Assembly (NCBI GenBank): GCA_964016885.1
Contig: OZ024759.1
Location: 4,836,001 to 4,900,000, forward strand
Length of the DNA: 64,000 nucleotides
Reading direction: 5' to 3'
Source: Eledone cirrhosa
Taxonomy: Eukaryota
Shown here: one piece after another, positions 2,513 through 54,061 of the stretch
Layout of the letters: every line of letters starts with the position of its first letter
How positions within the stretch are numbered: the first letter of the stretch is position 1
Notes under the pieces: generated by a model
Databases searched by the model: none
The model's input: the letters and a program-made list of their open reading frames with translations, nothing else
Told to the model about the DNA's origin: nothing
Position numbers and translations under genes: made by a program

Positions 2513-2650
2513 CTGTCTGACAGTTGCCACCTTCATATCCAGGAGCACATCCTCCATTAGAGCAGCTACCAGTCTGTGGCTTACATTTACTCTTGTCAGC
2601 ACAATGACACATGTTTCGACAGTTTGGTCCAAATTTTCCTCTCTTACATC
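2513..2650 (-). CDS. Exon Q (138 nt), EGF-like repeat
   Basis: atttgtag / gtaagt; GCKRGKFGPNCRNMCHCADKSKCKPQTGSCSNGGCAPGYEGGNCQT. Confidence 0.9.
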
Positions 2651-2819
2651 CTACAAATCAATCAATAACAAATATATATTTTGGTGTGTATTTGTGTGGC
2701 CTTGTGGTAAGGGTGTTGGACTTACAATCATAATGTCGTGAGTTCTATTCCTCAACTAGGTTGTGTGTTGTGTTCTTGAGCAAAAGTATTTCCATTCATG
2801 TTGCTCCAGTATAATAATA

Positions 2820-3008
2820 ATTGTTTCTACTTTTGACACAAGGCCAGCAATTACCCAGTACATTACTGGTACTTTATTTTATCGACCCCGTAAGGATGAA
2901 AGGCAAAGTTAACCTTGGTGGGATTTGAACTCGGATCATAAAGGGACGTAACTCTATGCTTCAAAGCATGGCGTCCGACTCTCTACCAATACTGACAATC
3001 CACCGCTC
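2820..3008 (-). mobile_element. tRNA-derived SINE (family also at ~42846-43035, 44918-45298, 48252-48465, 50780-50960, 52860-53760)
   Basis: Box A/B-like head (GGCGGTGGATTGGCAG...GAGTTCAAATCC) and shared body CTTTCATCCTTACGGGGTCGATAAAATAAAGTACCAG. Confidence 0.8.
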
Positions 3009-3009
3009 C

Positions 3010-3215
3010 AGTATAATAATAATAATAGTGAAATTATTGTGTACAGTGCTCAGGTGCACTATAACTCATCAAAGGTGCATGTAAAGCACATAGAATAATG
3101 AACAAATGTCAGGAAAATGAACAGTGTATGAGTCATGATAAACATATGTACGTGTGTATGGAGGAGGGATATCAGGTGTAGTGTTGGCGAATTTCAGGAA
3201 GCTTGGAGATCAGTG
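3010..3215 (-). mobile_element. CR1-like LINE 3' end fragment
   Basis: Reverse complement matches the 3' UTR and tail at 9870-10050 (GAGTT.TAGTGCACCTGAGCA.TGTACACAATAATTTCA). Confidence 0.7.
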
Positions 3216-3574
3216 CCAGTAATAGCTGGTGATTTAACCTTGGGATGGACTGGTGCCCTGTCCAGGGGAAGTTTTGTATTTTAAGTCACTTCATGCCATA
3301 GATAGCACTGGCCTGATGACCCTCAGCACTCGAGACACACTTTAGACATTTTTTTGTTTTTGTATATTCAACAGCCCAGTCCTTCTAACTGTCGGTAGGT
3401 ATCACACTGAGCAGAGTCCACTGTATTCCCCACACCTGGACAGGATGCTAGTCCATTGCATGGTATTTCACTGCTATATTATTCTATCTACTCCAAAAGT
3501 ATGACAGAAAAAGTTGATTTTGGTGGGATTTGAATACCGTTTTAAAAAAGAACTCAAAATCACAACCCATTAAA

Positions 3575-3785
3575 ACCTTTAGAATTTAAACCGGCCACAA
3601 TTCTCTCACTTCTTTATGTTCAAACCAGCCATAACTGGCTGCTCATACTTATGTTAAGGTATTGTTCTCAAAATAAATAATATCAAAATCTCATAGATTT
3701 GATATTATGTGAGATAATTATATGAGATAAAGCCTTTACTGTGAAAATATAATAGTGTATATGAAGTAGTGTAAATGCTAAAGGG
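3575..3785. mobile_element. TTAA-MITE copy
   Basis: Same body as 50040-50260; right end TAAATGCTAAAGGG-TTAA. Confidence 0.7.
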
Positions 3786-4014
3786 TTAATCTGTAACTCT
3801 ACTGCCCCTGCTACTCACATCTTCCTCATGATGAACATTTAACATTCACTTCCCCTGTAACCAAGAGTGGGATGTGTCAACAGAGACCGACTCAGAACTT
3901 AATCGGAGCTACTGACCTCTCAGATGTTACTGGATACATTTCATCATGACTGAAGAGGACATTCATCCATTTGTCTGGTAGATTTTCTAAAGAAATAGAA
4001 CTACAAAAGAGCAC

Positions 4015-5830
4015 ACACGTGTCTGACAGGTGCTACCTTATAACCAGGACCACACCATCTACTGTAACACACCTGTCTGACAGATGATACCTTATAACCA
4101 GGACCACACCATCTACTGTAACACACCTGTCTGACAGGTGCTACCTTATAACCAGGACTACACTATCTACTGTAACACACTTGTCTGATAGATGATACCT
4201 TATAACCAGGACAACACCATCTACTGTAACACACCTGTCTGACAGGTGCTACCTTATAACCAGGATCACACCATCTACTGTAACACACCTGTCTGACAGC
4301 TGCTACCTTATAACCAGGACCACACCTTCTACTGTAACACACCTGTCTGATAGATGATACCTTATAACCAGGACCACACCATCTACTGTAACACACCTGT
4401 CTGACAGCTGCTACCTTATAACCAGGACTACACTATCTACTGTAACACACTTGTCTGATAGATGATACCTTATAACCAGGACCACACCATCTACTGTAAC
4501 ACACCTGTCTGACAGCTGCTACCTTATAACCAGGACCACACCATCTACTGTAACACAACTGTCTGACAGGTACTACCATATAACCAGGACCACACCATCT
4601 ACTGTAACACACCTGTCTGACAGCTGCTACCTTATAACCAGGACCACACCATCTACTGTAACACAACTGTCTGACAGGTGCTACCTTATAACCAGGACCA
4701 CACCATCTACTGTAACACACCTGTCTGACAGGTGCTACCTTATAACCAGGATCACACCATCTACTGTAACACACCTGTCTGACAGCTGCTACCATATAAC
4801 CAGGACCACACCATCTACTGTAACACACCTGTCTGACAGGTGCTACATTATAACCAGGACCACACCATCTACTGTAACACACGTGTCTGACAGGTGCTAC
4901 CTTATAACCAGGACCACACCATCTACTGTAACACACCTGTCTGACAGGTGCTACTTTATAACCAGGACCACACCATCTACTGTAACACACCTGTCTGACA
5001 GCTGCTACCTTATAACCAGGACCACACCATCTACTGTAACACACCTGTCTGACAGGTGCTACCTTATAACCAGGACTTCACCATCTACTGTAACACACCT
5101 GTCTGACAGGTGCTACCTTATAACCAGGACCACACCATCTACTGTAACACACCTGTCTGATAGATGATACCTTATAACCAGGATCACACCATCTACTGTA
5201 ACACACGTGTCTGACAGGTGCTACCTTATAACCAGGACCACACCATCTACTGTAACACACCTGTCTGACAGGTGCTACCTTATAACCAGGACCACACCAT
5301 CTACTGTAACACACCTGTCTGACAGGTGCTACCTTATAACCAGGACTTCACCATCTACTGTAACACACCTGTCTGACAGGTGCTACTTTATAACCAGGAC
5401 CACACCATCTACTGTAACACACCTGTCTGACAGCTGCTACCTTATAACCAGGACCACACCATCTACTGTAACACACCTGTCTGACAGGTGCTACCTTATA
5501 ACCAGGACTTCACCATCTACTGTAACATACCTGTCTGACAGGTGCTACCTTATAACCAGGACCACACCATCTACTGTAACACACCTGTCTGATAGATGAT
5601 ACCTTATAACCAGGATCACACCATCTACTGTAACACACGTGTCTGACAGCTGCTACCTTATAACCAGGACCACACCATCTACTGTAACACACCTGTCTGA
5701 CAGGTGCTACCTTATAACCAGGACTTCACCATCTACTGTAACACACTTGTCTGACAGGTGCTACCTTATAACCAGGCCACACCATGTACTGTAACACACC
5801 TGTCTGATAGATGATACCTTATAACCAGGA
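4015..5830. repeat. 54-bp minisatellite (~33 copies) derived from EGF exon 3' half
   Basis: Minus-strand unit AGGTGTGTTACAGTAGATGGTGTGGTCCTGGTTATAAGGTAGCACCTGTCAGAC aligns to exon ACAGGTGTGTGTTACAGTGGAGGGTGTACTGCTGGTTATGAAGGTAGCAACTGTCAGAC. Confidence 0.92.
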
Positions 5831-5918
5831 ACACACCTTCCACTGGAACACACACCTGTCTCTGTCTTACACCTACTATCATCTTGACTAAATATATTAA
5901 GTAGCAAACAAAGCTTAC

Positions 5919-6056
5919 CTGTCTGACAGTTGCTACCTTCATAACCAGCAGTACATCCTCCTCTAGAACACACACCTGTCTGTTTGTTACATTTACTGTT
6001 GTCAACACAGTGACATGTGTTGCCACAGTTGGCTCCAAATTTTCCATTTCTACAGA
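5919..6056 (-). CDS. Exon P (138 nt), EGF-like repeat
   Basis: ttccacag / gtaagc; [46 protein letters not shown]. Confidence 0.9.
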
Positions 6057-6309: not shown

Positions 6310-9300
6310 ATCATCTTAATTTCCATGTTTCTAACACCCATGGATATGCCTACAAAGTCAGAAAACAGCACAGCTCCCATGACTTTCGGAAACATTTTTT
6401 CAAGCTCCGAGTTGCTGAAGCATGGAACAAACTACCTGCATCAGTTGTTAGCTGTCGAGACACTACATCCTTTAAAACCTCCATGGAACAAACTACCTGC
6501 ATCAGTTGTTAGCTGTCGAGACACTACATCCTTTAAAACCTCCATGGAACAAACTACTTGGATCAGTTGTTCGCTGTCGAGACACTACATCCTTTAAAAC
6601 CTCCATGGAACAAACTACCTGCATCAGTTGTTAGCTGTCGAGACACTGCATCCTTTAAAACCTCCATGGAACAAACTACCTGCATCAGTTGTTAGCTGTC
6701 GAGACAGTACATCCTCTAAAACCTCCATGGAACAAACTACCTGCATCAGTTGTTAGCTGTCGAGACACATCCTTTAAAACCTCCATGGAACAAACTACCT
6801 GCATCAGTTGTTAGCTGTCTAGACACTACATCCTTTAAAACCTCCATGGAACAAACTACCTGCATCAGTTGTTAGCTGTCGAGACACTACATCCTTTAAA
6901 ACCTCCATGGAACAAACTACCTGCATCAGTTGTTAGCTGTCGAGACACTACATCCTTTAAAACCTCCATGGAACAAACTACCTGCATCAGTTGTTAGCTG
7001 TCGAGACACTACATCCTTTAAAACCTCCATGGAACAAACTACCTGCATCAGTTGTTAGCTGTCGAGACACTACATCCTTTAAAACCTCCATGGAACAAAC
7101 TACCTGCATCAGTTGTTAGCTGTCGAGACACTACATCCTTTAAAACCTCCATGGAACAAACTACTTGCATCAGTTGTTAGCTGTTGAGACACTACATCCT
7201 TTAAAACCTCCATGGAACAAACTACCTGCATCAGTTGTTAGCTGTCGAGACACATCCTTTAAAACCTCCATGGAACAAACTACTTGCATCAGTTGTTAGC
7301 TGTCGAGACACTACATCCTTTAAAACCTCCATGGAACAAACTACCTGCATTAGTTGTTAGCTGTCGAGACACTATATCCTTTAAAACCTCCATGGAACAA
7401 ACTACCTGCATCAGTTGTTAGCTGTCGAGACACTGCATCCTTTAAAACCTCCATGGAACAAACTACCTGCATCAGTTGTTAGCTGTCGAGACACATCCTT
7501 TAAAACCTCCATGGAACAAACTACTTGCATCAGTTGTTAGCTGTCGAGACACTACATCCTTTAAAACCTCCATGGAACAAACTACCTGCATTAGTTGTTA
7601 GCTGTCGAGACACTACATCCTTTAAAACCTCCATGGAAGAAACTACCTGCATCAGTTGTTAGCTGTCGAAATACTACATCCTTTAAAACCTCCATGGAAC
7701 AAACTACTTGGATCAGTTGTTCGCTGTCGAGACACTACATCCTTTAAAACCTCCATGGAACAAACTACCTGCATCAGTTGTTAGCTGTCGAGACACTGCA
7801 TCCTTTAAAACCTCCATGGAACAAACTACCTGCATCAGTTGTTAGCTGTCGAGACAGTACATCCTCTAAAACCTCCATGGAACAAACTACCTGCATCAGT
7901 TGTTAGCTGTCGAGACACATCCTTTAAAACCTCCATGGAACAAACTACCTGCATCAGTTGTTAGCTGTCGAGACACTACATCCTTTAAAACCTCCATGGA
8001 ACAAACTACCTGCATCAGTTGTTAGCTGTCGAGACACTACATCCTTTAAAACCTCCATGGAACAAACTACCTGCATCAGTTGTTAGCTGTCGAGACACTA
8101 CATCCTTTAAAACCTCCATGGAACAAACTACCTGCATCAGTTGTTAGCTGTCGAGACACTACATCCTTTAAAACCTCCATGGAACAAACTACTTGCATCA
8201 GTTGTTAGCTGTTGAGACACTACATCCTTTAAAACCTCCATGGAACAAACTACCTGCATCAGTTGTTAGCTGTCGAGACACATCCTTTAAAACCTCCATG
8301 GAACAAACTACTTGCATCAGTTGTTAGCTGTCGAGACACTACATCCTTTAAAACCTCCATGGAACAAACTACCTGCATTAGTTGTTAGCTGTCGAGACAC
8401 TACATCCTTTAAAACCTCCATGGAAGAAACTACCTGCATCAGTTGTTAGCTGTCGAAATACTACATCCTTTAAAACCTCCATGGAACAAACTACCTGCAT
8501 CAGTTGTTAGCTGTCGAGACACATCCTTTAAAACCTCCATGGAACAAACTACTTGCATCAGTTGTTAGCTGTCGAGACACTACATCCTTTAAAACCTCCA
8601 TGGAACAAACTACCTGCATTAGTTGTTAGCTGTCGAGACACTATATCCTTTAAAACCTCCATGGAACAAACTACCTGCATCAGTTGTTAGCTGTCGAGAC
8701 ACTGCATCCTTTAAAACCTCCATGGAACAAACTACCTGCATCAGTTGTTAGCTGTCGAGACACATCCTTTAAAACCTCCATGGAACAAACTACTTGCATC
8801 AGTTGTTAGCTGTCGAGACACTACATCCTTTAAAACCTCCATGGAACAAACTACCTGCATTAGTTGTTAGCTGTCGAGACACTACATCCTTTAAAACCTC
8901 CATGGAACAAACTACCTGCATCAGTTGTTAGCTGTCGAAATACTACATCCTTTAAAACCTCCATGGAACAAACTACCTGCATCAGTTGTTAGCTGTCGAG
9001 ACACTACATCCTTTAAAACCTCCATGGAACAAACTACCTGCATTAGTTGTTAGCTGTCGAGACACTACATCCTTTAAAACCTCCATGGAACAAACTACCT
9101 GCATCAGTTGTTAGCTGTCGAGACACTACATCCTTTAAAACCTCCATGGAACAAACTACCTGCATCAGTTGTTAGCTGTCGAGATACATCCTTTAAAACC
9201 TCCATGGAACAAACTACTTGCATCAGTTGTTAGCTGTTGAGACACTACATCCTTTAAAACCTCCATGGAACAAACTACCTGCATCAGTTGTTAGCTGTCG

Positions 9301-10052
9301 AGACACTACATCCTTTAAAACCTCCATGGAACAAACTACTTGCATCAGTTGTTAGCTGTTGAGACACTACATCCTTTAAAACCTCCATGGAACAAACTAC
9401 TTGCATCAGTTGTTAGCTGTCGAGACACTACATCCTTTAAAACCTCCATGGAACAAACTTCCTGCATCAGTTGTTAGCTGCCGAGACACTGCATCCTTTA
9501 AAACCTCCATGGAACAAACTCCCTGAATCAGTTGTTAGCTGTCGAGACACATCCTTTAAAACCTCCATGGAACAAACTCCCTGCATCAGTTGTTAGCTGT
9601 CGAGACACTACATCCTTTACAACCTCCATGGAACAAACTCCCTGCATCAGTTGTTAGCTGCCGAGACACTACATCCTTTACAACCTCCATGGAACAAACT
9701 ACCTGCATCAGTTGTTAGCTGTCGAGACACATCCTTTACAACCTCCATGGAACAAACTACCTGCATCAGTTGTTAGCTGTCGAGACACTACATCCTTTAC
9801 AACCTCCATGGAACAAACTCCCTGCATCAGTTGTTAGCTGTCGACATCCTTTAAAACCTCTATGCTTCCTGAGATTCGTCAACGCTGCACCTGATGTCCC
9901 CCCCTTCCATACACACGCACACATGTATTTCATGACTCATACACTGTTCCTTTTCTTGACATTTAAACATTATTCTATGTACTATACATGCACCTTTGAT
10001 GAGTTGTAGTGCACCTGAGCATTGTACACAATAATTTCATTATTATATTATT
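6310..10052 (+). mobile_element. CR1-like LINE 3' fragment containing an expanded 61-bp tandem array
   Basis: HGYAYKVRKQHSSHDFRKHFFKLRVAEAWNKLPASVVSCRDTTSFK resembles the CR1 ORF2 C-terminus (FF-RV--WN-LP--VV---SFK); 3' UTR and (ATT) tail resume after the array. Confidence 0.8.
6421..9860. repeat. 61-bp minisatellite (~56 copies)
   Basis: Unit CATGGAACAAACTACCTGCATCAGTTGTTAGCTGTCGAGACACTACATCCTTTAAAACCTC. Confidence 0.97.
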
Positions 10053-10733: not shown

Positions 10734-10871
10734 CTGTCTGACAGTTGCTACCTTCAGAACCAGCAGTACATCCTCCACTAGAACACACACCTGTCTGTTT
10801 GTTACACCTGTTATTATCAGCACAGTGGCATGTGTGTTTACAGTTAGCTCCAAATTTACCAATGTCACAGG
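10734..10871 (-). CDS. Exon O (138 nt), EGF-like repeat
   Basis: attacag / gtaagt; ACDIGKFGANCKHTCHCADNNRCNKQTGVCSSGGCTAGSEGSNCQT. Confidence 0.88.
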
Positions 10872-11144: not shown

Positions 11145-14100
11145 TTTAGTAATATGGTAATGAAAGGATTAATGACATAGACAGTGTCTTTAAGTAGAAA
11201 TATGGTAATGAAATGGTTAATGATATAGACAGTGTCTTTAAGTAGAGATATGGTAATGAAGGGATTAATGACATAGACAGTGTCTTTAAGTAGAGATATG
11301 TAATGAAAGGTTTAATGACATAGACAGTGTCTTTAAGTAGAAATATGGTAATGAAAGGGTTAATGATATAGACAGTGTCTTTAAGTAGAAATATGTAACG
11401 AAAGGATTAATGACATAGACAGTGTCTTTAAGTAGAGATATGTAATGAAAGGGTTAATGACATAGACAGTGTCTTTAAGTAGAGATATGGTAATGAAAGG
11501 GTTAATGACATAGACAGTGTCTTTAAGTAGAAATATGGTAATGAAAGGGTTAATGATATAGGTAGTGTCTTTAAGTAGAAATATGGTAATGAAAGGTTTA
11601 ATGACATAGACGGTGTATTTAAGTAGAGATATGTAATGAAAGGTTTAATGACATAGACAGTGTCTTTAAGTAGAGATATGTAATGAAAGGATTAATGACA
11701 TAGACGGTGTCTTTAAGTAGAGATATGTAATGAAAGGGTTAATGACATAGACAGTGTCTTTAAGTAGAAATATGTAATGAAAGGATTAATGACATAGACG
11801 GTGTCTTTAAGTAGAGATATGTAATGAAAGGGTTAATGACATAGACAGTGTCTTTAAGTAGAGATATGTAATGAAAGGGTTAATGACATAGACAGTGTCT
11901 TTAAGTAGAAATATGGCAATGAAAGGGTTAATGACATAGACAGTGTCTTTAAGTAGAGATATGTAATGAAAGGGTTAATGACATAGACAGTGTCTTTAAG
12001 TAGAAATATGGTAATGAAAGGGTTAATGACATAGACAGTGTCTTTAAGTAGAGATATGTAATGAAAGGTTTAATGACATAGACAGTGTCTTTAAGTAGAG
12101 ATATGTAATGAAAGTTTTAATGACATGTCTTTAAGTAGAAATATGGTAATGAAAGAGTTAATGACATAGACAGTGTCTTTCATTAGAAATATGGTAATGA
12201 AAGGGTTAATGATATAGACAGTGTCTTTCATTAGAAATATGGTAATGAAAGGGTTAATGATATAGACAGTGTCTTTCATTAGAAATATGGTAATGAAGGG
12301 GTTAATGACATAGACTGTGTCTTTCATTAGAAATATGGTAATTAAAGGGTTAATGACATAGACAGTGTCTTTCATTAGAAATATGGTAATGAAAGGGTTA
12401 ATCACATAGACGGTGTCTTTAAGTAGAGATATGTAATGAAAGGGTTAATGATATAGACAGTGTCTTTAAGTAGAGATATGTAATGAAAGGGTTAATGATA
12501 TAGACAGTATCTTTAAGTAGAGATATGGTAATGAAAGGGTTAATGACATAGACAGTGTCTTTAAGTAGAGATATGTAATGAAAGGATTAATGACATAGAC
12601 GGTGTCTTTAAGTAGAGATATGTAATGAAAGGTTTAATGATATAGACAGTGTCTTTAAGTAGAAATATGGTAATGAAAGGGTTAATGACATAGACAGTGT
12701 CTTTAAGTAGAGATATGTAATGAAAGTTTTAATGACATGTCTTTAAGTAGAAATATGGTAATGAAAGAGTTAATGACATAGACAGTGTCTTTCATTAGAA
12801 ATATGGTAATGAAAGGGTTAATGATATAGACAGTGTCTTTCATTAGAAATATGGTAATGAAAGGGGTAATGACATAGACAGTGTCTTTAAGTAGAAATAT
12901 GGTAATGAAAGGATTAATGACATAGACAGTGTCTTTCATTAGAAATATGGTAATGAAAGATTATATGATATAGACAGTGTCTTTAAGTAGAGATATGGTA
13001 ATGAAAGGATTAATGACATAGACAGTGTCTTTAAGTAGAAACTTGGTAATGAAAAGTTTAATGACATAGAGTCTATGTCATTAAGCCTTTATCCAAATAT
13101 TCAATTACTTTCAATCAAGAAACAAATGCAAATATCCGACTAACTTGAATTTTCCCTCGGATTTTAAAATTATTTTACGTATTTTTTCTATATTAGTTTT
13201 TTGAACTTAATATTATTATTTTTCTATTGTATTTCTTTATAATTATGTGAAGGCAAAAATATTTTATATTGTAACTTTTTATGTTAAATAATAAATGACT
13301 ATAAAACTATACAAATTTTATATACTATATATTATAATAATTTCACAAAAGTCGCATTTATAGGTATATCAACTTATGCGGCCTCCTTTATTACTGCCTA
13401 ATTTAAATGTGGCCTCTAATGGTAAAAAGGTTCCTCTCCTCTGACATAGACAGTGTCTTTCATTAGAAATATGGTAATGAAAGGGTTAATGACATAGACA
13501 GTGTCTTTAAGTAGAGATATGTAATGAAAGGGTTAATGATATAGACAGTGTCTTTAAGTAGAAATATGGTAATGAAAGGGTTAATGACATAGACAGTTTC
13601 TTTAAGTAGAGATATGTAATGAAAGTTTTAATGACATGTCTTTAAGTAGAAATATGGTAATGAAAGAGTTAATGACATAGACAGTGTCTTTCATTAGAAA
13701 TATGGTAATGAAAGGGTTAATGATATAGACAGTGTCTTTCATTAGAAATATGGTAATGAAAGGGGTAATGACATAGACAGTGTCTTTAAGTAGAAATATG
13801 GTAATGAAAGGATTAATGACATAGACAGTGTCTTTCATTAGAAATATGGTAATGAAAGATTAAATGATATAGACAGTGTCTTTAAGTAGAGATATGGTAA
13901 TGAAAGGATTAATGACATAGACAGTGTCTTTAAGTAGAAACTTGGTAATGAAAAGTTTAATGACATAGAGTCTATGTCATTAAACCTTAATCCAAATATT
14001 CAATTACTTTCAAGCAAGAAACAAATGCAAATATCCGATTAACTTGAATTTTCCCTCGGATTTTAAAATTATTTTACGTATTTTTTCTATATTAGTTTTT

Positions 14101-14500: not shown

Positions 14501-14638
14501 CTGTCTGACAGTTGCTACCTTCATAACCAGCAGCACATCCTCCACTAGAACACACACCTGTCTGTTTGTTACATTTACTGTTGTCAGCACAGTGACATGT
14601 GTTGCCACAGTTGGCTCCATATTTACCTGATTTACAGA
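14501..14638 (-). CDS. Exon N (138 nt), EGF-like repeat, near-identical to exon M
   Basis: atttccag / gtatat; [46 protein letters not shown]. Confidence 0.87.
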
Positions 14639-14746: not shown

Positions 14747-17700
14747 CAGAGGTCGGCATCCTTTTGGGGCGTGCGGGCCACATTGCTATGGAGTGTCACA
14801 CAGGCAGGCCACATTTCTATGCAGTGTCTCACTGGCAGGCCACATTGTTACGAAGTGTCTTGTCAGTTGCTCACATTGTTATACAGTGTCTTGTCAGCAG
14901 GCCACATAGCTATGGAGTGTCTTGTCAGCAGGCCACATAGCTATGGAGTGTCTTGTCAGCAGGCCACATAGCTATGGAGTGCCTTGTCAGCAGGCCACAT
15001 AGCTGTACAGTGTCTTGTCAGCAGGCCACATAGCTATGCAGTGTCTTGTCAGCAGGCCACATTTCTATAGAGTGTCTTGTCAGCAGGCCACATAGCTATG
15101 GAGTGTCTTGTCAGCAGGCCACATTGTTACGAAGTGTCTTGTCAGTTGCTCACATTGCAATACAGTGTCTTGTCAGCAGGCCACATAGCTATGGAGTGTC
15201 TCACCAGCAGGCCACATTGCTATACAGTGTCTTGTCAGCAGGCCACATAGCTATACAGTGTCTTGTCAGCAGGCCATATTGCTATGGAGTGTCTCACGAG
15301 CAGGCCACATAGCTATGGAGTGTCTTGTCAGCAGGCCACATTGCTATAGAGTGTCTTGTCAGCAGGCCACATAGCTATGGAGTGTCTCACCAGCAGGCCA
15401 CATTGCTATGCAGTGTCTCACCAGCAGGCCACATAGCTATGCAGTGTCTCACCAGCAGGCCACATAGCTATGCAGTGTCTCACCAGCAGGCCACATTGCT
15501 ATGCAGTGTCTTGTCAGCAGGCCATATTGCTATGTAGTGTCTCACTAGCAGGCCACATAGCTATGCAGTGTCTCACCAGCAGGCCACATTGCTATGTAGT
15601 GTCTCACCAGCAGGCCACATTGCTATGTAGTGTCTCACCAGCAGGCCACATTGCTATGTAGTGTCTTGTCAGCAGGCCACATAGCTATGTAGTGTCTCGT
15701 CAACAGGCCACATAGCTATGTAGTGTCTCACCAGCAGGCCACATTGCTATGTAGTGTCTCACCAGCAGGCCACATTGCTATGTAGTGTCTCACCAGCAGG
15801 CCACATTGCTATGTAGTGTCTTGTCAGCAGGCCACATAGCTATGTAGTGTCTCGTCAGCAGGCCACATAGCTATGGAGTGTCTTGTCGGCAGGCCACATA
15901 GCTATGGAGTGTCTCACCAGCAGGCCACATAGCTATGGAGTATCTCACCAGCAGGCCACATTGTTACGAAGTGTCTTGTCAGTTGCTCACATTGCAATAC
16001 AGTGTCTTGTCAGCAGGCCACATAGCTATGGAGTGTCTTGTCAGCAGGCCACATAGCTATGGAGTGTCTCACCAGCAGGCCACATTGCTATACAGTGTCT
16101 TGTCAGCAGGCCACATAGCTATGGAGTGTCTTGTCAGCAGGCCACATAGCTATGGAGTGTCTCACCAGCACGCCACATTGCTATACAGTGTCTTGTCAGC
16201 AGGCCACATAGCTATACAGTGTCTTGTCAGCAGGCCATATTGCTATGTAGTGTCTCACCAGCAGGCCACATAGCTATGGAGTGTCTTGTCAGCGGGCCAC
16301 ATAGCTATGGAGTGTTTCAGCAGCAGGCCACATAGCTATGCAGTGTCTTGTCAGCAGGCCACATACAGTGTCTTGTCAGCAGGCCATATTGCTATGCAGT
16401 GTCTTGCCAGCAGGCCACATTGCTATAGAGTGTCTTGTCAGCAGGCCACATAGCCATGGAGTGTCTCACCAGCAGGCCACATTGCTATGCAGTGTCTCAC
16501 CAGCATGCCACATAGCTATGTAGTGTCTTGTAAACAGGCCACATAGCTATGCAGTGTCTCACCAGCAGGCCACATAGCTATGCAGTGTCTCACCAGCAGG
16601 CCACATTGCTATGCAGTGTCTCACCAGCAGGCCACATTGCTATGTAGTGTTTCACCAGCAGGCCACATTGCTATGTAGTGTCTCACCAGCAGGCCACATT
16701 GCTATGTAGTGTCTTGTCAGCAGGCCATATTGCTATGCAGTTTCTCACCAGCAGGCCACATAGCTATGTAGTGTCTTGTCAGCAGGCCACATAGCTATGC
16801 AGTGTCTCACCAGCAGGCCACATTGCTATGCAGTGTCTCACCAGCAGGCCACATTGCTATGCAGTGTCTTGTCAGCAGGCCATATTGCTATGTAGTGTCT
16901 CACCAGCAGGCCACATAGCTATGTAGTGTCTCGTCAGCAGGCCACATAGCTATGGAGTGTCTTGTCGGCAGGCCACATAGCTATGCAGTGTCTCACCAGC
17001 AGGCCACATAGCTATGCAGTGTCTCACCAGCAGGCCACATAGCTATGGAGTGTCTCACCAGCAGGCCACATAGCTATGGAGTGTCTCACCAGCAGGCCAC
17101 ATTGCTATGCAGTTTCTCACCAGCAGGCCACATTGCTATGTAGTGTCTCACCAGCAGGCCACATTGCTATGCAGTTTCTCACCAGCAGGCTACATAGCTA
17201 TGTAGTGTCTCACCAGCAGGCCACATAGCTATGTAGTGTCTCACCAGCAGGCCACATAGCTATGTAGTGTCTCACCAGCAGGCCACATAGCTATGTAGTG
17301 TCTCACCAGCAGGCCACATAGCTATGTAGTGTCTCGTCAGCAGGCCACATAGCTATGGAGTGTCTTGTCGGCAGGCCACATAGCTATGGAGTGTCTCACC
17401 AGCAGGCCACATAGCTATGTAGTGTCTCGTCAACAGGCCACATAGCTATGGAGTGTCTTGTCAGCAGGCCACATTGCTATAGAGTGTCTTGTCAGCAGGC
17501 CACATAGCTATGGAGTGTCTCACCAGCAGGCCACATTGCTATGCAGTGTCTCACCAGCAGGCCACATAGCTATGCAGTGTCTCACCAGCAGGCCACATAG
17601 CTATGCAGTGTCTCACCAGCAGGCCACATTGCTATGCAGTGTCTTGTCAGCAGGCCATATTGCTATGTAGTGTCTCACCAGCAGGCCACATAGCTATGTA

Positions 17701-20700
17701 GTGTCTCGTCAGCAGGCCACATAGCTATGGAGTGTCTTGTCGGCAGACCACATAGCTATGCAGTGTCTCACTAGCAGGCCACATAGCTATGCAGTGTCTC
17801 ACCAGCAGGCCACATTGCTATGTAGTGTCTCACCAGCAGGCCACATTGCTATGTAGTGTCTCACCAGCAGGCCACATTGCTATGTAGTGTCTTGTCAGCA
17901 GGCCACATAGCTATGTTGTGTCTCGTCAACAGGCCACATAGCTATGTTGTGTCTCGTCAACAGGCCACATAGCTATGTAGTGTCTCACCAGCAGGCCACA
18001 TTGCTATGTAGTGTCTCACCAGCAGGCCACATTGCTATGTAGTGTCTCACCAGCAGGCCACATTGCTATGTAGTGTCTTGTCAGCAGGCCACATAGCTAT
18101 GTAGTGTCTCGTCAGCAGGCCACATAGCTATGGAGTGTCTTGTCGGCAGGCCACATAGCTATGTTGTGTCTCGTCAACAGGCCACATAGCTATGTTGTGT
18201 CTCGTCAACAGGCCACATAGCTATGTAGTGTCTCACCAGCAGGCCACATTGCTATGTAGTGTCTCACCAGCAGGCCACATAGCTATGGAGTATCTCACCA
18301 GCAGGCCACATTGTTACGAAGTGTCTTGTCAGTTGCTCACATTGCAATACAGTGTCTTGTCAGCAGGCCACATAGTTATGGAGTGTCTTGTCAGCAGGCC
18401 ACATAGCTATGGAGTGTCTCACCAGCAGGCCACATTGCTATACAGTGTCTTGTCAGCAGGCCACATAGCTATGGAGTGTCTTGTCAGCAGGCCACATAGC
18501 TATGGAGTGTCTCACCAGCAGGCCACATTGCTATACAGTGTCTTGTCAGCAGGCCACATAGCTATACAGTGTCTTGTCAGCAGGCCATATTGCTATGGAG
18601 TGTCTCACCAGCAGGCCACATAGCTATGGAGTGTCTTGTCAGCGGGCCACATAGCTATGGAGTGTTTCACCAGCAGGCCACATAGCTATGCAGTGTCTTG
18701 TCAGCAGGCCACATACAGTGTCTTGTCAGCAGGCCATATTGCTATGCAGTGTCTTGTCAGCAGGCCAGATTGCTATAGAGTGTCTTGTCAGCAGGCCACA
18801 TAGCCATGGAGTGTCTCACCAGCAGGCCACATTGCTATGCAGTGTCTCACCAGCATGCCACATAGCTATGTAGTGTCTTGTAAACAGGCCACATAGCTAT
18901 GCAGTGTCTCACCAGCAGGCCACATAGCTATGCAGTGTCTCACCAGCAGGCCACATTGCTATGCAGTGTCTCACCAGGAGGCCACATTGCTATGTAGTGT
19001 CTCACCAGCAGGCCACATTGCTATGTAGTGTCTCACCAGCAGGCCACATTGCTATGTAGTGTCTCACCAGCAGGCCACATTGCTATGCAGTGTCTCACCA
19101 GCAGGCCACATAGCTATGCAGTGTCTCACCAGCAGGCCACATTGCTATGCAGTGTCTCACCAGCAGGCCACATTGCTATGTAGTGTCTCACCAGCAGGCC
19201 ACATAGCTATGTAGTGTCTCGTCAGCAGGCCACATAGCTATGGAGTGTCTTGTCGGCAGGCCACATAGCTATGCAGTGTCTCACCAGCAGGCCACATAGC
19301 TATGCAGTGTCTCACCAGCAGGCCACATAGCTATGGAGTGTCTCACCAGCAGGCCACATAGCTATGGAGTGTCTCACCAGCAGGCCACATTGCTATGCAG
19401 TTTCTCACCAGCAGGCCACATTGCTATGTAGTGTCTCACCAGCAGGCCACATTGCTATGCAGTTTCTCACCAGCAGGCTACATAGCTATGTAGTGTCTCA
19501 CCAGCAGGCCACATAGCTATGTAGTGTCTCACCAGCAGGCCACATAGCTATGTAGTGTCTCACCAGCAGGCCACATAGCTATGTAGTGTCTCACCAGCAG
19601 GCCACATAGCTATGTAGTGTCTCGTCAGCAGGCCACATAGCTATGGAGTGTCTTGTCGGCAGGCCACATAGCTATGGAGTGTCTCACCAGCAGGCCACAT
19701 AGCTATGTAGTGTCTCGTCAGCAGGCCACATAGCTATGGAGTGTCTTGTCAGCAGGCCACATTGCTATAGAGTGTCTTGTCAGCAGGCCACATAGATAAT
19801 GGAGTGTCTCACCAGCAGGCCACATTGCTATGCAGTGTCTCACCAGCAGGCCACATAGCTATGCAGTGTCTCACCAGCAGGCCACATAGCTATGCAGTGT
19901 CTCACCAGCAGGCCACATTGCTATGCAGTGTCTTGTCAGCAGGTCATATTGCTATGTAGTGTCTCACCAGCAGGCCACATAGCTATGTAGTGTCTCGTCA
20001 GCAGGCCACATAGCTATGGAGTGTCTTGTCGGCAGACCACATAGCTATGCAGTGTCTCACTAGCAGGCCACATAGCTATGCAGTGTCTCACCAGCAGGCC
20101 ACATTGCTATGTAGTGTCTCACCAGCAGGCCACATTGCTATGTAGTGTCTCACCAGCAGGCCACATTGCTATGTAGTGTCTTGTCAGCAGGCCACATAGC
20201 TATGTAGTGTCTCGTCAACAGGCCACATAGCTATGTAGTGTCTCACCAGCAGGCCACATTGCTATGTAGTGTCTCACCAGCAGGCCACATTGCTATGTAG
20301 TGTCTCACCAGCAGGCCACATTGCTATGTAGTGTCTTGTCAGCAGGCCACATAGCTATGTAGTGTCTCGTCAGCAGGCCACATAGCTATGGAGTGTCTTG
20401 TCGGCAGGCCACATAGCTATGGAGTGTCTCACCAGCAGGCCACATAGCTATGGAGTATCTCACCAGCAGGCCACATTGTTACGAAGTGTCTTGTCAGTTG
20501 CTCACATTGCAATACAGTGTCTTGTCAGCAGGCCACATAGCTATGGAGTGTCTTGTCAGCAGGCCACATAGCTATGGAGTGTCTCACCAGCAGGCCACAT
20601 TGCTATACAGTGTCTTGTCAGCAGGCCACATAGCTGTGGAGTGTCTTGTCAGCAGGCCACATAGCTATGGAGTGTCTCACCAGCAGGCCACATTGCTATA

Positions 20701-23562: not shown

Positions 23563-23578
23563 TTACTACACCATATAC

Positions 23579-23716
23579 CTGTATGACAGTTGCTACCTTC
23601 ATAACCAGCAGCACATCCTCCACTAGAACACACACCTGTCTGTTTGTTACATTTACTGTTGTCAACACAGTGACATGTGTTGCCACAGTTGGCTCCAAAT
23701 TTACCTGATTTACAGA
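23579..23716 (-). CDS. Exon M (138 nt), EGF-like repeat
   Basis: atttccag / gtatat; [46 protein letters not shown]. Confidence 0.87.
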
Positions 23717-28764: not shown

Positions 28765-28901
28765 CTGTCTGACAGTTGCTACCTTCATAACCAGCAGTAC
28801 ATCCTCCACTAGAACACACACCTGTCTGTTTGTTATATTTACTGTTGTCAACACAGTGACATGTGTTGCCACATTGGCTCCAAATATACCATTTCTACAG
28901 A
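28765..28901 (-). pseudogene. Exon L, EGF-like exon with 1-nt deletion (137 nt)
   Basis: Near copy of exon P but GCC AA TGT instead of GCC AAC TGT, plus Cys>Tyr (AAA TAT AAC); splice sites intact. Confidence 0.75.
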
Positions 28902-29731: not shown

Positions 29732-29886
29732 CTGTCTTACAGTTGCTATCTTCATAACCATCACCACACACTTCACTGGAACACACACCTGTCTCTGTGT
29801 TACATCTAGCTGTTTGTTACACCTGCTGTTGTTAGTACAGTGACATGTGTGTTTACAGTTAGGTCCAAATTTACCTGTTTTACACC
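29732..29886 (-). pseudogene. Exon K, EGF-like exon with 17-nt insertion (155 nt, frameshift)
   Basis: Good attttcag acceptor; CKTGKFGPNCKHTCHCTNNSRCNKQ, then a TGTAACAAACAGCTAGA duplication shifts the frame; remainder reads [24 protein letters not shown]; weak gtgtgt donor. Confidence 0.75.
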
Positions 29887-30049: not shown

Positions 30050-30187
30050 CTGTCTGACAGTTGCTACCTTCATAACCAGCAGCACATCCTCCACTAGAAC
30101 ACACACCTGTCTCTTTGTTACACCTGCTGTTATCAGCACAGTGACATGTGTATTTACAGTTGGGTCCAAATTTACCTGTTTTACAGA
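30050..30187 (-). CDS. Exon J (138 nt), EGF-like repeat
   Basis: ccgacag / gtaagt; [46 protein letters not shown]. Confidence 0.85.
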
Positions 30188-30920: not shown

Positions 30921-31058
30921 CTGTTTGACAGTTGCTACCTTCATAACCAGCAGCACATCCTCCACTTGAACACACACCTGTCTCTTTGTTACACCTGCTG
31001 TTATCTGCGCAGTGACATGTGTATTTACAGTTGGCTCCAAATTCACCTGTTTTACAGA
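30921..31058 (-). CDS. Exon I (138 nt), EGF-like repeat
   Basis: attttcag / gtaagt; [46 protein letters not shown]. Confidence 0.9.
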
Positions 31059-36622: not shown

Positions 36623-36760
36623 CTGTCTGACAGTTGCTACCTTCATAACCAGCAGTACACCCTCCACTGTAACACACACCTGTCTCTGTGTTACATTTGC
36701 TGTTGTCTGCACAGTGACAATTTCTACTACAGCTGGGACCAAACTTTCCTACAGGACACA
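36623..36760 (-). CDS. Exon H (138 nt), EGF-like repeat with mutated acceptor
   Basis: [46 protein letters not shown] is open with a gtaagt donor, but the expected AG reads GG (ttttctatgg). Confidence 0.65.
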
Positions 36761-39730: not shown

Positions 39731-39864
39731 CGTGGTGACAGTCAGGTCCCTGGTAACTGGGTTGACAACCTCCACTGGAACACACACCTGTGATGAAGTT
39801 GTGGTGACATCAGCACAGTGGCAGGTTTCTTTACAGTTGAGGCCGTAGTTACCTTGACGACACT
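39731..39864 (-). pseudogene. Exon G, frameshifted EGF-like exon (134 nt)
   Basis: CRQGNYGLNCKETCHCADVT/NFITGVCSSGGCQPSYQGPDCHH; 4 nt short of 138, 5th Cys missing, weak GAG acceptor, gtatgt donor. Confidence 0.75.
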
Positions 39865-42601: not shown

Positions 42602-42739
42602 TTGACTGGCAGCTGTGTCCCCTGTAAGCAGGTGAGCACCTTCCATTGATGCAGATACCATTGTCAGAGTAACATTTGCCATTATTCAGACAGTGGCACT
42701 TCTTAACACAGTTGACACCAAACATGCCATGGGCACATC
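42602..42739 (-). CDS. Exon F (138 nt), EGF-like repeat 2
   Basis: ttttctcag / gtaagt; GCAHGMFGVNCVKKCHCLNNGKCYSDNGICINGRCSPAYRGHSCQS. Confidence 0.9.
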
Positions 42740-44745: not shown

Positions 44746-44880
44746 CTTTACAAGTGTTATTCACATCAATATATCCATCTTTACATCCAGTCACACATTT
44801 GCCAGTCAATTGATCACATGTCTTTCTGCAGTTGTTGCACTCTTCTTTACAATTTCTTCCATAGAATCCAGGGAGACATT
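44746..44880 (-). CDS. Exon E (135 nt), EGF-like repeat 1 of array
   Basis: tttctag / gtgagt; CLPGFYGRNCKEECNNCRKTCDQLTGKCVTGCKDGYIDVNNTCK. Confidence 0.9.
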
Positions 44881-47663: not shown

Positions 47664-47864
47664 GAAAGACCTCCACTTCACACATGCTAAGGCTAGGTCC
47701 TGACAGCAGAATTATTGTGATTTTGTTGCCCTTAACAGGACTAGAACATTGCACATCAATAACTTTTGTCTTCTCTAGATTGGAAATCTTCTTACATATT
47801 CTGTGTTTTTTGTCATTTGATACCAACACTATTATTGAGAATTTATTTTGTGCTGCAGAAAAAC
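47664..47864 (-). CDS. Exon D (201 nt), C-terminal part of F-type lectin domain
   Basis: ttcttaccag / gtaagt; ...ICKKISNLEKTKVIDVQCSSPVKGNKITIILLSGPSLSMCEVEVF ends in the FTP L-x-CEVEVF motif; a second in-frame acceptor lies 12 nt downstream. Confidence 0.88.
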
Positions 47865-50260: not shown

Positions 50261-50497
50261 TTAAGGGTATGCATGTCTGTGGAATACTCAGCCACTTGCA
50301 CGTTAATTTCATGAGCAGGCTGTTCCAGTAATAGTGTCAACTGGAACACTCATTGTTGTAACCGACAGTGCCAGTTCAAGTTCAAGGGGTAGAGTTGATT
50401 CAGACAGTTTGGTATCCAAACAGTTAAACAATTAGGAACATGTGTGTTTCATGCCAATTATAAATAAATGTCTTTAGTAAATGGTGACATTCTAGAA

Positions 50498-51677
50498 CAG
50501 AGGTTCTCAAACTTTTTCGGGCCATCGCCCCCCACACGGCCTTGTAATACCCTCTAAAACACCACACCTATTTCCAGAGAGACCTACCTACAAGCAAATT
50601 GTAAATAATATAAAAAAAAGGAACGATTGACTTTCGTCAAATCGGACCGAGGAAACAATGTTTCCGTTGGTCTTTCCAATTGCTAATACTATCTATCGGT
50701 CGCAACTCCAGGTCGAAGGAGCAACGTGAAATAAAGTAAATAATATATAATACATAAAATGGTTGATATATAATAAATAATTCTTTCTACTTTTGGCACA
50801 AGGCCAGCAATTACTCCAGTGTATTACTGGTACTGTATTTTATCGACCCAGTAAAGGTGAAAGGCAAAATTAACCTAGGAGGGATTTAAACTCAGATAAT
50901 AAAGGGCCGTAACTCTATGCTGCAAAGCATGGTGTCCTACCTTCTATAATATATCGACAGTCGATCAACTTCCATCAAATTGGACCACGGAATCAATGCT
51001 TCCATTGGTCTTTCCAATTGCTAATACTATCTATCAGTTGCAACTCCAGGTAGAAAGAACAACCTCACAACCTCACGATTGCAAATCCGATTCGCTAATC
51101 ACTCAGCCTTCACTATCATCATCATTATCATCATTTTACATCCGCTTTTCCCTGCTTGTAAGGGTGGGACAGGTCTTATTAAACACAGCATCTCTCCATT
51201 TGTCACGGTTCCTTGTCATCTCCTCCATGAGCTTCAGTGATCTGAGGTCTGCTCTCACCACCTCTGCCCATGTTTTTCGTGATCTTCCTCTACTGTGTCT
51301 TCCTTCTACTGTGATTTCTTGGCAGTTCTTTACCCAGCTGTCATCCACCATGCGCATCACATGTCCATACCAACACAGTCTTCTCTCCCACACACTACAA
51401 CTTATCCCTCTTATACACAGTTTCTCTCTCAACTCGTCTATACTTTGTCGTTCACACACATTGACATCACACATGCAACAGCATATACTTGCTTCATTTC
51501 TATCCACTATATAATATATACTATGTATCAATAAATATCATATACTTTTTTTATTTTACTATATTTATATATAAAATTTATCATTTGATATTTGATATAC
51601 TATTATATCCTCTCCACCCCCATCCTTAAGCCCCAGCACCCCTCTTGGGGCAGTAGCACCCACTTTGAGAACCTCTG
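50498..51677. mobile_element. hAT (Charlie-like) non-autonomous element with nested SINE and RTE 3' fragment (51115-51510, -)
   Basis: TIR CAGAGGTTCTCAAA / TTTGAGAACCTCTG; 8-bp TSD TTCTAGAA / TTCTAGAG. Confidence 0.85.
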
Positions 51678-51756
51678 TTCTAGAGGGAAGTGAAATTGTA
51701 AAGTGTAACAGGCAAGAAGACAACATTTTTCCAAACAAACAAAAAAACCAACTTAC

Positions 51757-52014
51757 TATCAATATAGTTATAATATATCCTTAGTTGGGAAATATCGTAT
51801 GTTTGTCTGAGTTCAAGAGTCCACAATGATGTTGGAGAGCTCATTGTATGAGAACAAGATCTGTGTTGTGGGTTTTGATCGAAGTTACCATCTACAGCCA
51901 GGTTAGCTGACATTGAGTACATTTCATTGCGACAAACATTGTTTTTCATTAGAATTACACTGCTTGTTTTGTCTGTCGTGGTTTGTGTAGCTACTTTACC
52001 AATAGCTATATTTC
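51757..52014 (-). CDS. Exon C (258 nt), N-terminal part of F-type lectin (FTP) domain
   Basis: ttttcag / gtaagt; NIAIGKVATQTT...SANLAVDGNFDQNPQHRSCSHTMSSPTSLWTLELRQTYDISQLRIYYNYID matches FTP motifs NIA-GK-A-Q, A-AVDGN, SC-HT, W-L-L. Confidence 0.9.
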
Positions 52015-52645
52015 CTGAAAAAGAATGAAAGAAAATTTAATGAAAGTCAATTACTATGAAATGAAATGGATCTCAGTCAGTTGAAACGATGATTGATCCA
52101 GTGGGAAAAGACAAATTGTTTTCTATATACTAAACTTTTGAAATATCTTTTACGTTATCTCTAAATTATTCCATATTTCCAGTAGAGGCATGTGGCCTAG
52201 TGTTAAGTGTGTTGGACTTACAATCATAATGTCATGGGTTCGATTTCTGGGGTGGGTTGTGTGTTGTGTTCTTGAGCAAAACACTTCATTTCACGTTGCT
52301 CCAGTATACTCTGCTGAAAATGAGCACCAGCAATAGCTGTGGAGGGTGTAACCCTGCAATGGACTGATGTCCTGTCCAGGAGGAAGTCTTGTACTCACAG
52401 TCGCTTTATGCCATGAAACCAGGATAAGCATTGGCCTAATGAGCCTTCAGGCTTGAGACAGTATAGTCCTATACGAACGAGACACGGTCACCCGACCAAT
52501 CTTGCCTCAATTGGGACAACTCCCGACTAACCCATGCTAGCATGGAAGATAGACGTAAACGATGATGATGATGATGATGATATAGCAACCTCAGCCTCAA
52601 CAGCGACAGCAACAACAATGGCATGATAATTAGAAATCTACTTAC

Positions 52646-52789
52646 TATAGGTTTTTACTTGGCAATCCGGTCCGGTCCATCCTTCTTCCCAGCCATATGG
52701 GCAAGCCCCAGTTTGTTGATGGCAGTCAGCATCGTTTAAACAATGGCATTGCTTGTTACAAGTATATCCATACCATTGAGATGCACAAC
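52646..52789 (-). CDS. Exon B (144 nt), EGF-like repeat
   Basis: aacatag acceptor, gtaagt donor; GCASQWYGYTCNKQCHCLNDADCHQQTGACPYGWEEGWTGPDCQVKTY (7th Cys position is Trp). Confidence 0.88.
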
Positions 52790-53911
52790 CTATGTTAAAA
52801 GTTAGAATTTATCACACTGATGGACTACATTTCCACAGTTCTCTCTCATCTACAGTTAATTGTTTCTACTATTTGGCACAAGGTACCAGTAATACACAGG
52901 GGTAATTGCTGAATTACCTCAGTGCATTACTGGTGCTTTATTTTATTGACCCCCCCCCCCCATAAGAATGAAAGGCAAACCTTGGCGGGTTTGAAATCAG
53001 AACGTAAAGGGCCATAACTCTATGCTGCAAAGCATGGTGTCTGACACTCTATGGATTACTGCCAATCCAATAATAATAATTGTTTCTACTTTTGGCACAA
53101 GGCCAGCCAGCAATTACCCCCAGTGCATTACTGGTACTTTATTTTATCGACCTCCATAAGAATGAAAGGCAAAGCTAACTTCAGCAGGATTTGAACTCAG
53201 AACGTAAAGGGCCATAATTCTATGCTGCAAAACATGGTGTCTGATGCTCTACGGATTACTGCCAGTCCAATCCAGCAATTACCCCAGTGCATTACTGGTA
53301 CTTTATTTTATCGACCCCTGTAAGGATGAAAGGCAAAGTTAACCTCGGCGGGATTTGAACTCAGAACATAAAGGGCCGTAAACATGATGTCTGACACTCT
53401 ACCGATTACTGCCAGTCTCACATAATTATCTCACCTAATATTATGGTCTGAGTTCAAATCCCGGCGAGGATAACTTTGCCATTCATCCTTACGGGGGTCG
53501 ATAAAATAAAGTACCAGTAATACACTGGGGTAATTGCTGGCCTTGTGCCCCCAAAAGTAGAAACATAATATTGAATATATTAGATTTTGATATTATCTAT
53601 TTTGAGAACATTATCTTAACATTAATAAGGACGGTGGGTTGGCAGTATCGGTGGAGGGTCGGACGCCATGCTTTCCAGCATAGAGTTACGGCCCTTTACG
53701 ATCTGAGTAATGCACTGGGTAATTGCTGGCCTTGTGCCTAAAGTAGAAACAATTATCTTAACATGAATATGAACGGCTGGTTACAGCCAGTTTGAACAGA
53801 AAGAGGTGAGAGAATTCTGGCCAGATACAGTCGCTTTAAATGCTAAAGGGTTAACAGTCACAGTTTGTAGAGATTAACAACTAAAGTTTGAATGAATAAA
53901 GATCAACAGAC

Positions 53912-54061
53912 CTGATAATGATAATGTTTCGATACAGGTACCCTCTCCTTTTATAGAAATAGACCAAGCGTTTACATCCCCTGAACAGCTCAAAGGTCTG
54001 GTTGTACATATTGATGTACAAAAGGGTTCCTTATTTTTGCCAAAAAATACTGAAACTGTCT
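53912..54061 (-). CDS. Exon A (150 nt), Cys-containing extracellular segment
   Basis: ttcatttcag acceptor, gtctgt donor, phase 1-1, open: ETVSVFFGKNKEPFCTSICTTRPLSCSGDVNAWSISIKGEGTCIETLSLS. Confidence 0.6.

Follow-up and report, generated by a model that had tools for sequence, protein, structure and literature searches.

A tandem array of receptor-gene fragments in Eledone cirrhosa that is likely transcribed and drifting

The window, a stretch of 64,000 nt of the Eledone cirrhosa genome (GCA_964016885.1, OZ024759.1:4,836,001-4,900,000, forward strand) to whose positions all coordinates refer, represents one unit of about 110 kb of a tandem segmental duplication. Its gene-fragment exons all lie on the minus strand. 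The unit starts with a Cys-rich exon, termed exon X (53912..54061, 150 nt, phase 1-1), which is the counterpart of exon 4 in the model of a gene on C22. It is followed by a pre-lectin EGF-like exon (52646..52789), which shows a Cys>Trp change relative to C22 and is joined to exon X in run X4. Next comes a galactose-binding/F-type-lectin-fold domain. X4 holds a contig that spans exactly its exon 1 (51757..52014, 258 nt). The acceptor of its exon 2 (47664..47852, 189 nt) was set by comparison with C22, and the donor is intact in the window and mutated (GT>AT) in the units referred to below as types B and C.

The 13 EGF exon copies that the initial annotation had placed after this domain are present, with starts running from 44880 down to 2650. 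Exons 1 (44746..44880, 135 nt) and 2 (42602..42739, 138 nt) are followed by exon 3 (39731..39864), which is broken by a 4-nt loss (134 nt) and has a weak GAG acceptor, and by exon 4 (36623..36760), which has lost its acceptor (AG>GG). Exons 5 (30921..31058) and 6 (30050..30187) are intact. Exon 7 (29735..29886) is a dead relic with an insertion and no donor at the expected place, and exon 8 (28765..28901) is frameshifted by a 1-nt loss (137 nt) between intact splice sites. Exons 9 (23579..23716, a local duplicate of exon 10), 10 (14501..14638), 11 (10734..10871), 12 (5919..6056) and 13 (2513..2650) are all intact, the protein sequence of exon 13 being found 100% identical at 22 genomic places. 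Five more EGF exons follow past the left edge of the window.

Dead copies are thus interleaved with live ones, as had been claimed: four of the 13 are damaged (39864, 36760, 29886 and 28901), and half-exon relics lie at 28586-28490, 27507, 23337, 10665-10581 and 5884-5798. Moreover, the 3' half of an EGF exon gave rise to a minisatellite of 34 copies of 54 bp (4013..5853, no strand assigned). Of the three frame-broken exons, two (39864 and 28901) are intact in C22, and so is the acceptor-mutated exon at 36760, which indicates that these three lesions arose by decay after the duplication. The relic exon 7 is dead in C22 too and was excluded from the lesion and pN/pS counts. The 1-1 phase proposed for all 13 copies holds for every length-intact one (nine have 138 nt). 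The last ten are indeed close paralogues, with 73-98% DNA identity (mean 84%) among the eight length-intact members. They were thought to differ mainly in the N-terminal loops; columns 2-3 and 11-13 do vary most, but the variable columns number 9, 9 and 6 in the three successive thirds.

The F-type lectin label is correct only at the level of the fold. The first half of the domain, and only this half, shows homology to F-type lectins (FBP32 3cqo, E=2e-8; 2j22, 7.6e-7; 1k12, 3.1e-5), while its PF22633 score of 24.2 bits stays below the cut-off of 27.8. The fucose-binding motif, given as HX(26)RXDX(4)R/K in the accessible part of a report on F-type lectins (PMC5297725), is absent: C22 has the His, an Asn at +27 and no R-x-D-x4-R, and the two exons of the window are the same at these positions.

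Homology to C22 ends upstream of exon X in a partial Gypsy LTR (59474..59791, plus strand; inner limit 59474 transferred from the neighbouring unit), where window position 59791 corresponds to C22:1,669,018. A Gypsy RT-RNaseH-integrase remnant with an LTR (59851..63586, plus strand; coordinates transferred from the neighbouring unit, class read from the translation) opens the non-gene spacer. The initial annotation had pictured the locus as a receptor whose tail lies out of view. Instead, the last EGF exon of the unit is followed by 46 kb that contain LINEs, one Helitron and one Gypsy but no TM exon, and beyond them lies the next unit. Neither the window unit nor the spacer holds a signal peptide or TM, both of which are found only in the predicted C22 model, and head and TM exons are missing from every copy examined. 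The tested head exon is single-copy on C22, with no second one assembled (145/145 candidates scored). For the tail exon there is one full copy on C22 plus one 42-residue fragment, again with no second full copy assembled (79/79 candidates scored). When the genome was searched at the DNA level for the TM region, only 40 of 6,316 candidates were scored, and the tail was therefore re-tested by protein. Helitron-driven capture of the gene fragment is unsupported: the frameshifted Rep/helicase lies inside the spacer, and the 5' break of the fragment falls in a Gypsy LTR.

At least 26 near-identical copies of 100-200 kb, all from the middle part of one octopus-type cell-surface receptor gene, make up the array, which totals about 3 Mb. 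Its lectin exon has 27 genomic matches at ≥96% amino acid identity (49/49 candidates scored), 14 of them in one 1.9-Mb block on C20. Neighbouring units are arranged head-to-tail, 103-116 kb apart and 98.7-100% identical. C22 is the outgroup to all nine unit stretches compared (divergence 1.6-2.3%); unit types differ from each other by 0.85-1.4% and sister units by 0.1-0.25%. The types are mosaic: type B diverges from type A by 0.12% in its 3' half and by about 1% in its 5' half. A full-length sense-strand LINE occupies the lectin intron in 10 of 11 units examined. Post-lectin EGF exon copies total 18 in the unit of the window and 14 in the unit next to it; a type C unit has 24 and type B 14, against 41 intact ones in the same stretch of C22. 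These differences bear out the proposed gain and loss of exons, which proceeds through tandem duplication and deletion.

Identity of up to 100% over several kb between sister units is also what an assembly artefact of repeated or unpurged haplotype copies would produce. Moreover, the C20 block has an assembly gap at each end, both inside a 111-bp satellite, and one block sits on an 811-kb scaffold, which makes the chromosomal placement of the blocks doubtful. However, unit types differ by about 1% and in deletions, exon triplications and LINE presence, which exceeds two haplotypes. The part of the C20 block that was examined, about 0.91 of 1.94 Mb, showed no gap, and copy-type alleles are present in the runs of two samples. 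We therefore give the artefact reading very little credence. Contig depth on non-repetitive parts is about 820-990 (DNA, X1-X3), a value that has no single-copy baseline and is not read as copy number. In the literature searched, no account of an array like this in cephalopods turned up.

Judged by its sequence, the intact C22 gene is the source of the array and belongs to the molluscan MEGF/GBD(-RPTP) family. The model comprises 64 predicted exons in one ORF of 3,022 aa, with AG/GT at all junctions and a terminal stop. It encodes, in this order, a signal peptide, the galactose-binding-like domain, 53 further EGF exons, a TM and a tail. EGF repeats and a galactose-binding-like domain, the MEGF/GBD set, are present, with single-exon Pfam scores below the curated cut-offs. 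A lectin-fold and EGF-stalk receptor family, as initially proposed, is thus upheld, but not the window locus as a receptor. The suggested PTP tail did not materialize either: the predicted tail is PTP-less and has five YxxM motifs (YDEM, three YEVM and YGVM) and no NPxY or YxxL. In the first 14 Mb of C22 and on C20, PF00102 has no match (113/113 candidates scored), and octopus RPTPs have none beyond the TM within C22:1.58-1.84 Mb. Three head exons scanned singly revealed no EMI domain; a short head exon may be absent from the model. In protein searches the lectin exon had one relative (62%), and the tail exon and exon X had none, which is weak evidence. We predict, from the model, that the C22 gene encodes the working receptor, which would have a long stalk, serve in recognition or engulfment and signal through YxxM motifs and PI3K. 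X4 has no contig of C22-type exon X; since its contigs drop rarer variants, this is uninformative on expression of the parent gene.

Broken exons number 3/21, 2/18, 5/27, 6/25 and 3/25 in five units and 3/19 in a sixth, and two of 27 lectin exons carry stop codons. Variants among the copies comprise 39 nonsynonymous and nine synonymous changes, including Cys losses and a stop. The resulting pN/pS is 1.07 for 19 unambiguous exons, a count that excludes near-identical exons of uncertain orthology, and 1.32 for 22 exons. Both are indistinguishable from neutral, and between-type pN, from which exons of uncertain orthology were likewise dropped, matches intron divergence. On these sequence comparisons the unit copies likely evolve neutrally; with so few synonymous changes, selection may still act weakly. 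The 18 exons of the young C22 cluster (93% mean identity), in contrast, show purifying selection (pN/pS 0.46, p=0.015). Diversifying selection was found in neither set.

These results bear on the idea that the headless copies add diversity to an immune receptor, either as cassettes or as a donor library drawn on by trans-splicing or gene conversion. The mosaic unit types would suit it, as would the snail MEGF/GBD family, in which EGF number varies at a parasite-resistance-linked locus according to the available portion of the report (PMC12297450). But comparison of unit stretches with C22 revealed no long identical tract, the longest measuring 514 bp, and gene conversion from or to C22 was not seen. 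The copies are nearly invariant in protein and would add little diversity, selection on the young C22 exons is purifying rather than diversifying, and the fucose-binding motif is missing. We regard either role of the copies as highly improbable, and cassette splicing for recognition diversity as unsupported.

Exons of the units are nevertheless likely spliced. A 354-nt X4 contig joins a last EGF exon, exon X and an EGF exon in frame. Over the three exons it has no mismatch to four type B units, three to the window and eight to C22. The library of X4 is not on record, and we take it as RNA only from its exon-exact, spliced contigs; the junction, seen in one contig of one run, is likely RNA-derived. 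A retrocopy origin is ruled out, since all 27 lectin exon matches have open frames of only 117-121 aa.

Could the junction be a back-splice, with type B units giving a circular RNA of about 2.5 kb and the spacer not transcribed across? Contigs alone give the same junction for linear and circular RNA, and only type B alleles, those of four units, appear in it, though other types are more numerous. Against this, the genomic donor and acceptor stand in linear order, about 46-50 kb apart. The depth of the junction (88) is of the same order as that of the lectin exon (143), and a last EGF exon is the only upstream neighbour of exon X in X4. The three 3'-most C20 units are type B, which fits the 3' bias expected of a linear transcript. 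A circular RNA is, in our judgement, decidedly unlikely.

An in-frame junction that is the sole upstream connection of exon X could also point to a giant protein-coding gene produced by intragenic amplification. Its units would be joined in frame by splicing that skips broken exons, giving a multi-module EGF/lectin-fold chain, and its head and tail would be unassembled or shared with an array-bearing C22 allele. The expressed type B units have an unbroken frame if lectin exon 2 is skipped (17 exons, 2,481 nt, 827 codons), as a coding module would need, and the 4-nt-deleted exon has its weak GAG acceptor in five of five copies. The gaps that close the C20 block at both ends could hide a head and tail of its own. 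These features of type B and of the block boundaries also run counter to the explanation that we prefer below. However, pN/pS among the copies is at least 1, with Cys losses and a stop, and in the lectin domain of type B the donor of exon 2 is lost and V40E stands beside the DGN motif. In types A and C there are frameshifted exons whose splice sites are intact, partial copies on C19, C23 and C27 pass gaplessly into unrelated satellite DNA, and no second head or full tail is assembled. We consider a giant gene unlikely. It is also improbable that the 1.9-Mb C20 block is one transcription unit whose 100-200 kb modules are spliced end-to-start in frame. Its product would reach the scale of titin, with EGF repeats in the hundreds and 827 residues per type B module. 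Such a chain would act as a secreted decoy or represent, at extreme length, an allele of a cephalopod recognition receptor, and unequal crossing-over would set the number of its modules.

The array is likely a satellite of gene fragments that is transcribed and drifts, and not an immune cassette system; more specifically, we lean towards a non-functional macrosatellite transcribed with unit-to-unit read-through. About 76 kb of the C22 gene (1,669,018-1,745,323) would have been duplicated beside an older transposon-rich duplicon, and the 100-200 kb composite then amplified by unequal exchange, which may also add or drop symmetric exons and yield recombinant unit types. Units lacking head and membrane exons would drift neutrally. 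Transcription, presumably from a borrowed promoter upstream of the block or in the full-length sense LINE of the lectin intron, would cross the spacer, and the last exon of one unit would be spliced to the first exon of the next. The product, without a signal peptide, is probably a non-functional RNA.

Such module-to-module splicing of head-to-tail, multi-exon repeats is known from LPA kringle IV-2, the CR1 long homologous repeats and NBPF/Olduvai. Those repeats are flanked by the head and tail of a single gene, and their units measure a few to about 20 kb, whereas the array has 100-200 kb units, a foreign spacer of about 46 kb and no assembled head or tail. HYDIN2 and ROCK1P1 are truncated human segmental duplicates that regain transcription (PMC6169893, in the part available). 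They share with the array incomplete duplication, loss of the ancestral promoter, borrowed transcription and splicing to neighbouring duplicated exons. The array, in contrast, has at least 26 copies, each without either end of the gene, and a copy is spliced in frame to a tandem copy of the same fragment.

Draper, CED-1, MEGF10 and SREC are EGF-stalk receptors, and the first three have an N-terminal EMI domain and a tail with NPxY and YxxL motifs. The C22 gene resembles these proteins and PEAR1 in its eight-Cys EGF-like stalk and tyrosine-motif tail, with a weak SCARF1 match (E=0.008). It differs by its lectin-fold domain, by five YxxM motifs instead of one, by the lack of NPxY and YxxL in the predicted tail and by the lack of an EMI match in the head exons tested. 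PEAR1 signals through YxxM and PI3K, as far as the accessible text of PMC12557594 goes.

With its very long stalk and its tail of repeated YxxM motifs, the C22 gene is a candidate for a cephalopod receptor of engulfment or recognition. Its family is already described: MEGF/GBD receptors and MEGF/GBD-RPTPs are reported in snails, with SudRes1 of Biomphalaria sudanica, and tied to parasite resistance (PMC12297450, available portion). Shared features are an EGF, a galactose-binding domain, an EGF run and a single TM, as well as clustered paralogous segments and variable EGF number. Differences lie in the 53 EGF exons that follow the lectin domain in the C22 gene, in its YxxM tail, which has no PTP domains, and in the amplified unit, an internal fragment rather than a whole gene. 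A symmetric-exon gene would have been amplified at two scales: as single exons within the gene, and as a 100-200 kb multi-exon module that built up an array of about 3 Mb, in which splicing would still join one unit to the next in frame. This makes testable whether decoy receptors or giant modular proteins may arise from gene-fragment satellites as their raw material. The case also calls for caution, as many molluscan 'expanded MEGF10/draper/fucolectin' annotations may be headless fragments of one gene. Octopus relatives are named RPTP T-like, draper and fucolectin-5. On C2, distant paralogues have PTP exons within about 0.1 Mb of them on the same strand.

The exon anatomy described in the initial annotation, a lectin-fold domain followed by 13 EGF-like exon copies, is correct. 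The order on the minus strand is Cys-rich exon X (54061-53912), an EGF exon (52789-52646), the two exons of the lectin-fold domain (52014-51757 and 47852-47664) and the 13 copies, the last of which is at 2650-2513. Nine of the copies are 138 nt and one is 135 nt long; three (39864, 29886 and 28901) are frame-broken or dead, and one 138-nt exon (36760) has lost its acceptor. Tandem repeats make up 46% of the window, and half an EGF exon is the building block of one of them. Introns also contain long minisatellites of 31, 61 and 48 bp and a GGT tract (14776-26574, 6421-9844, 11147-13070 and 661-2450); several of these vary in length from unit to unit and might mediate the gain or loss of exons.

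The window (C20:4,836,001-4,900,000) is part of a repeat unit, a 100-200 kb tandem copy of the middle part of a receptor gene plus spacer. The protein encoded by its last exon recurs with 100% identity at 22 or more places (best 150 of 1,356 candidates scored), and the lectin exon has 27 matches of at least 96% (all 49 candidates scored): 14 on C20, the contig of the window, eight on C27, two each on C23 and C16 and one on C22. Among the lectin exon matches in the assembly there is no retrocopy. Units adjoining the window are spaced 103-116 kb and are 98.7-100% identical. Beyond the window follow five further EGF exons, a ~46-kb spacer and the start of the next unit. The spacer contains a frameshifted Helitron (Rep/PIF1 helicase; C20:4,810,480-4,814,900, stretch L018; present in the units examined), LINEs, a C2H2 zinc-finger remnant (C20:4,796,518-4,797,124) and Gypsy. 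It forms part of an older duplicon, with older copies of 90-98% identity on C10, C18, C19, C26 and C28.

The C20 block spans 1.94 Mb and is bounded by gaps at 3,365,346 and 5,304,094, both bordered by a 111-bp satellite, so that the assembly fixes neither its placement nor its true ends. That the array itself is an assembly artefact is very improbable; in the ~0.91 Mb of the block examined there is no gap. Partial copies on C19, C23 and C27 pass without a gap into unrelated satellite DNA. In type B units (one of several sequence classes), a 17-bp satellite occupies up to ~76 kb of one intron (C20:3,390,027-3,466,301; 3,586,688 onward).

A complete version of the gene is present at C22:1.64-1.79 Mb. 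The model, built ab initio without cDNA, has 64 exons, AG/GT throughout and a single ORF of 3,022 aa. It begins with a signal-peptide-like exon 1, three head exons, an EGF exon and the lectin-fold domain. These are followed by 53 EGF exons, one TM exon and a tail in which the motifs YDEM, YEVM (three times) and YGVM occur. The YEVM-bearing exon consists of ~11-residue repeats (C22:1,790,803-1,791,125; L038:803-1125), and one 183-nt EGF exon (C22:1,761,361-1,761,543) carries an in-frame poly-Gly expansion from a GGT microsatellite. Downstream of the TM and tail exons no PTP domain was found; the start of the last exon resembles an RPTP juxtamembrane region, which suggests that PTP domains were lost. 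An 18-exon cluster (1,713-1,725 kb; mean identity 93%) has expanded recently inside the gene, and its 28 nonsynonymous versus 15 synonymous variants (pN/pS 0.46, p=0.015) indicate purifying selection. The receptor family is already known: the gene resembles the snail SudRes1 locus in its MEGF/GBD(-RPTP) architecture, and such genes, paralogous segments and EGF loss are reported for that locus (PMC12297450). YxxM-PI3K signalling is known for PEAR1 (PMC12557594), and by analogy the C22 receptor may signal likewise. The literature searched contained no description of a parent with 53 EGF exons and a YxxM tail, nor of a ~3-Mb array spliced in frame.

The copies have neither head nor tail. Homology to C22 begins at 1,669,018, within a Gypsy LTR of intron 3, and ends near 1,745,323; a head exon is single-copy in the assembly, and for the YxxM exon there is a single full copy besides a short fragment (C22:10.45 Mb). 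C22 is the outgroup to all nine unit stretches compared (1.6-2.3% divergence), with ~1% divergence between unit types and 0.1-0.25% between sisters. Exon content varies through deletions and local duplications, and type B is recombinant. Six non-B units have disabling lesions in 2-6 exons each, variants among copies give a pN/pS of 1.07-1.32, and pN equals intron divergence. The exon array seen in the initial annotation is real, but rather than an expanding cassette receptor with a possible immune or self-recognition role, we somewhat favour a macrosatellite of the receptor's middle part that drifts neutrally and is partly transcribed. Type B units count against such drift of headless and tailless copies, since in the halves compared (four 5' and three 3') they show one lesion in 18 exons, the donor of lectin exon 2, and keep the frame when that exon is left out. 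A system in which the copies act as donors or cassettes is quite improbable.

Spliced, exon-exact contigs came from X4, a sequencing run that, like all the others, is not recorded as RNA. One is exactly the lectin exon. The other (354 nt) is spliced over the intron between exon X and the EGF exon, and its loose upstream end matches the 3' end of a unit's last EGF exon (31 places), joined in frame, phase 1 to phase 1. Over three exons (13-14 copies compared per exon), the contigs show no mismatch to four type B units, three to the window's unit and eight to C22. Thus, some copies are transcribed and spliced from last exon to first exon, and the alleles matched are those of type B, not of the window's unit. 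Linear read-through is the simplest reading, since the acceptor follows the donor at a distance of 46-50 kb and the three units at the 3' end of the C20 block are all of type B. Back-splicing into a circular RNA would yield an identical contig, but with both sites already in linear order it is unlikely. The in-frame join speaks for a single giant multi-module gene, which we regard as rather unlikely.

A full-length sense LINE interrupts the 72-bp minisatellite in the lectin intron of 10 of the 11 units examined; it is missing from the window's unit and from C22 and might act as a promoter of the units within the macrosatellite. Similar routes back to transcription are described for truncated human duplicates (PMC6169893). 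The LINE has frames of 621 and 1,152 codons (endonuclease, RT and zf-RVT; e.g., C20:4,767,597-4,777,064 and L175:5390-8845), is duplicated in two units and looks like a repeat-targeting element.

Solved fucolectins match the lectin exon; a sequence check of the domain did not find the motif HX(26)RXDX(4)R/K (PMC5297725). Relatives bearing names are octopus proteins, which points to an octopod genome. Distant lectin-fold paralogues (30-42%) are clustered at C2:230-233, 257, 261 and 314-315 Mb and also occur at C17:40.2 Mb. Several of those on C2, unlike the C22 gene, are close to PTP exons and are likely MEGF/GBD-RPTP genes. Finally, intron-less PTP domains with long open frames are found at C22:17.64 Mb, C14:9.15-9.16 Mb and C10:12.09 Mb.
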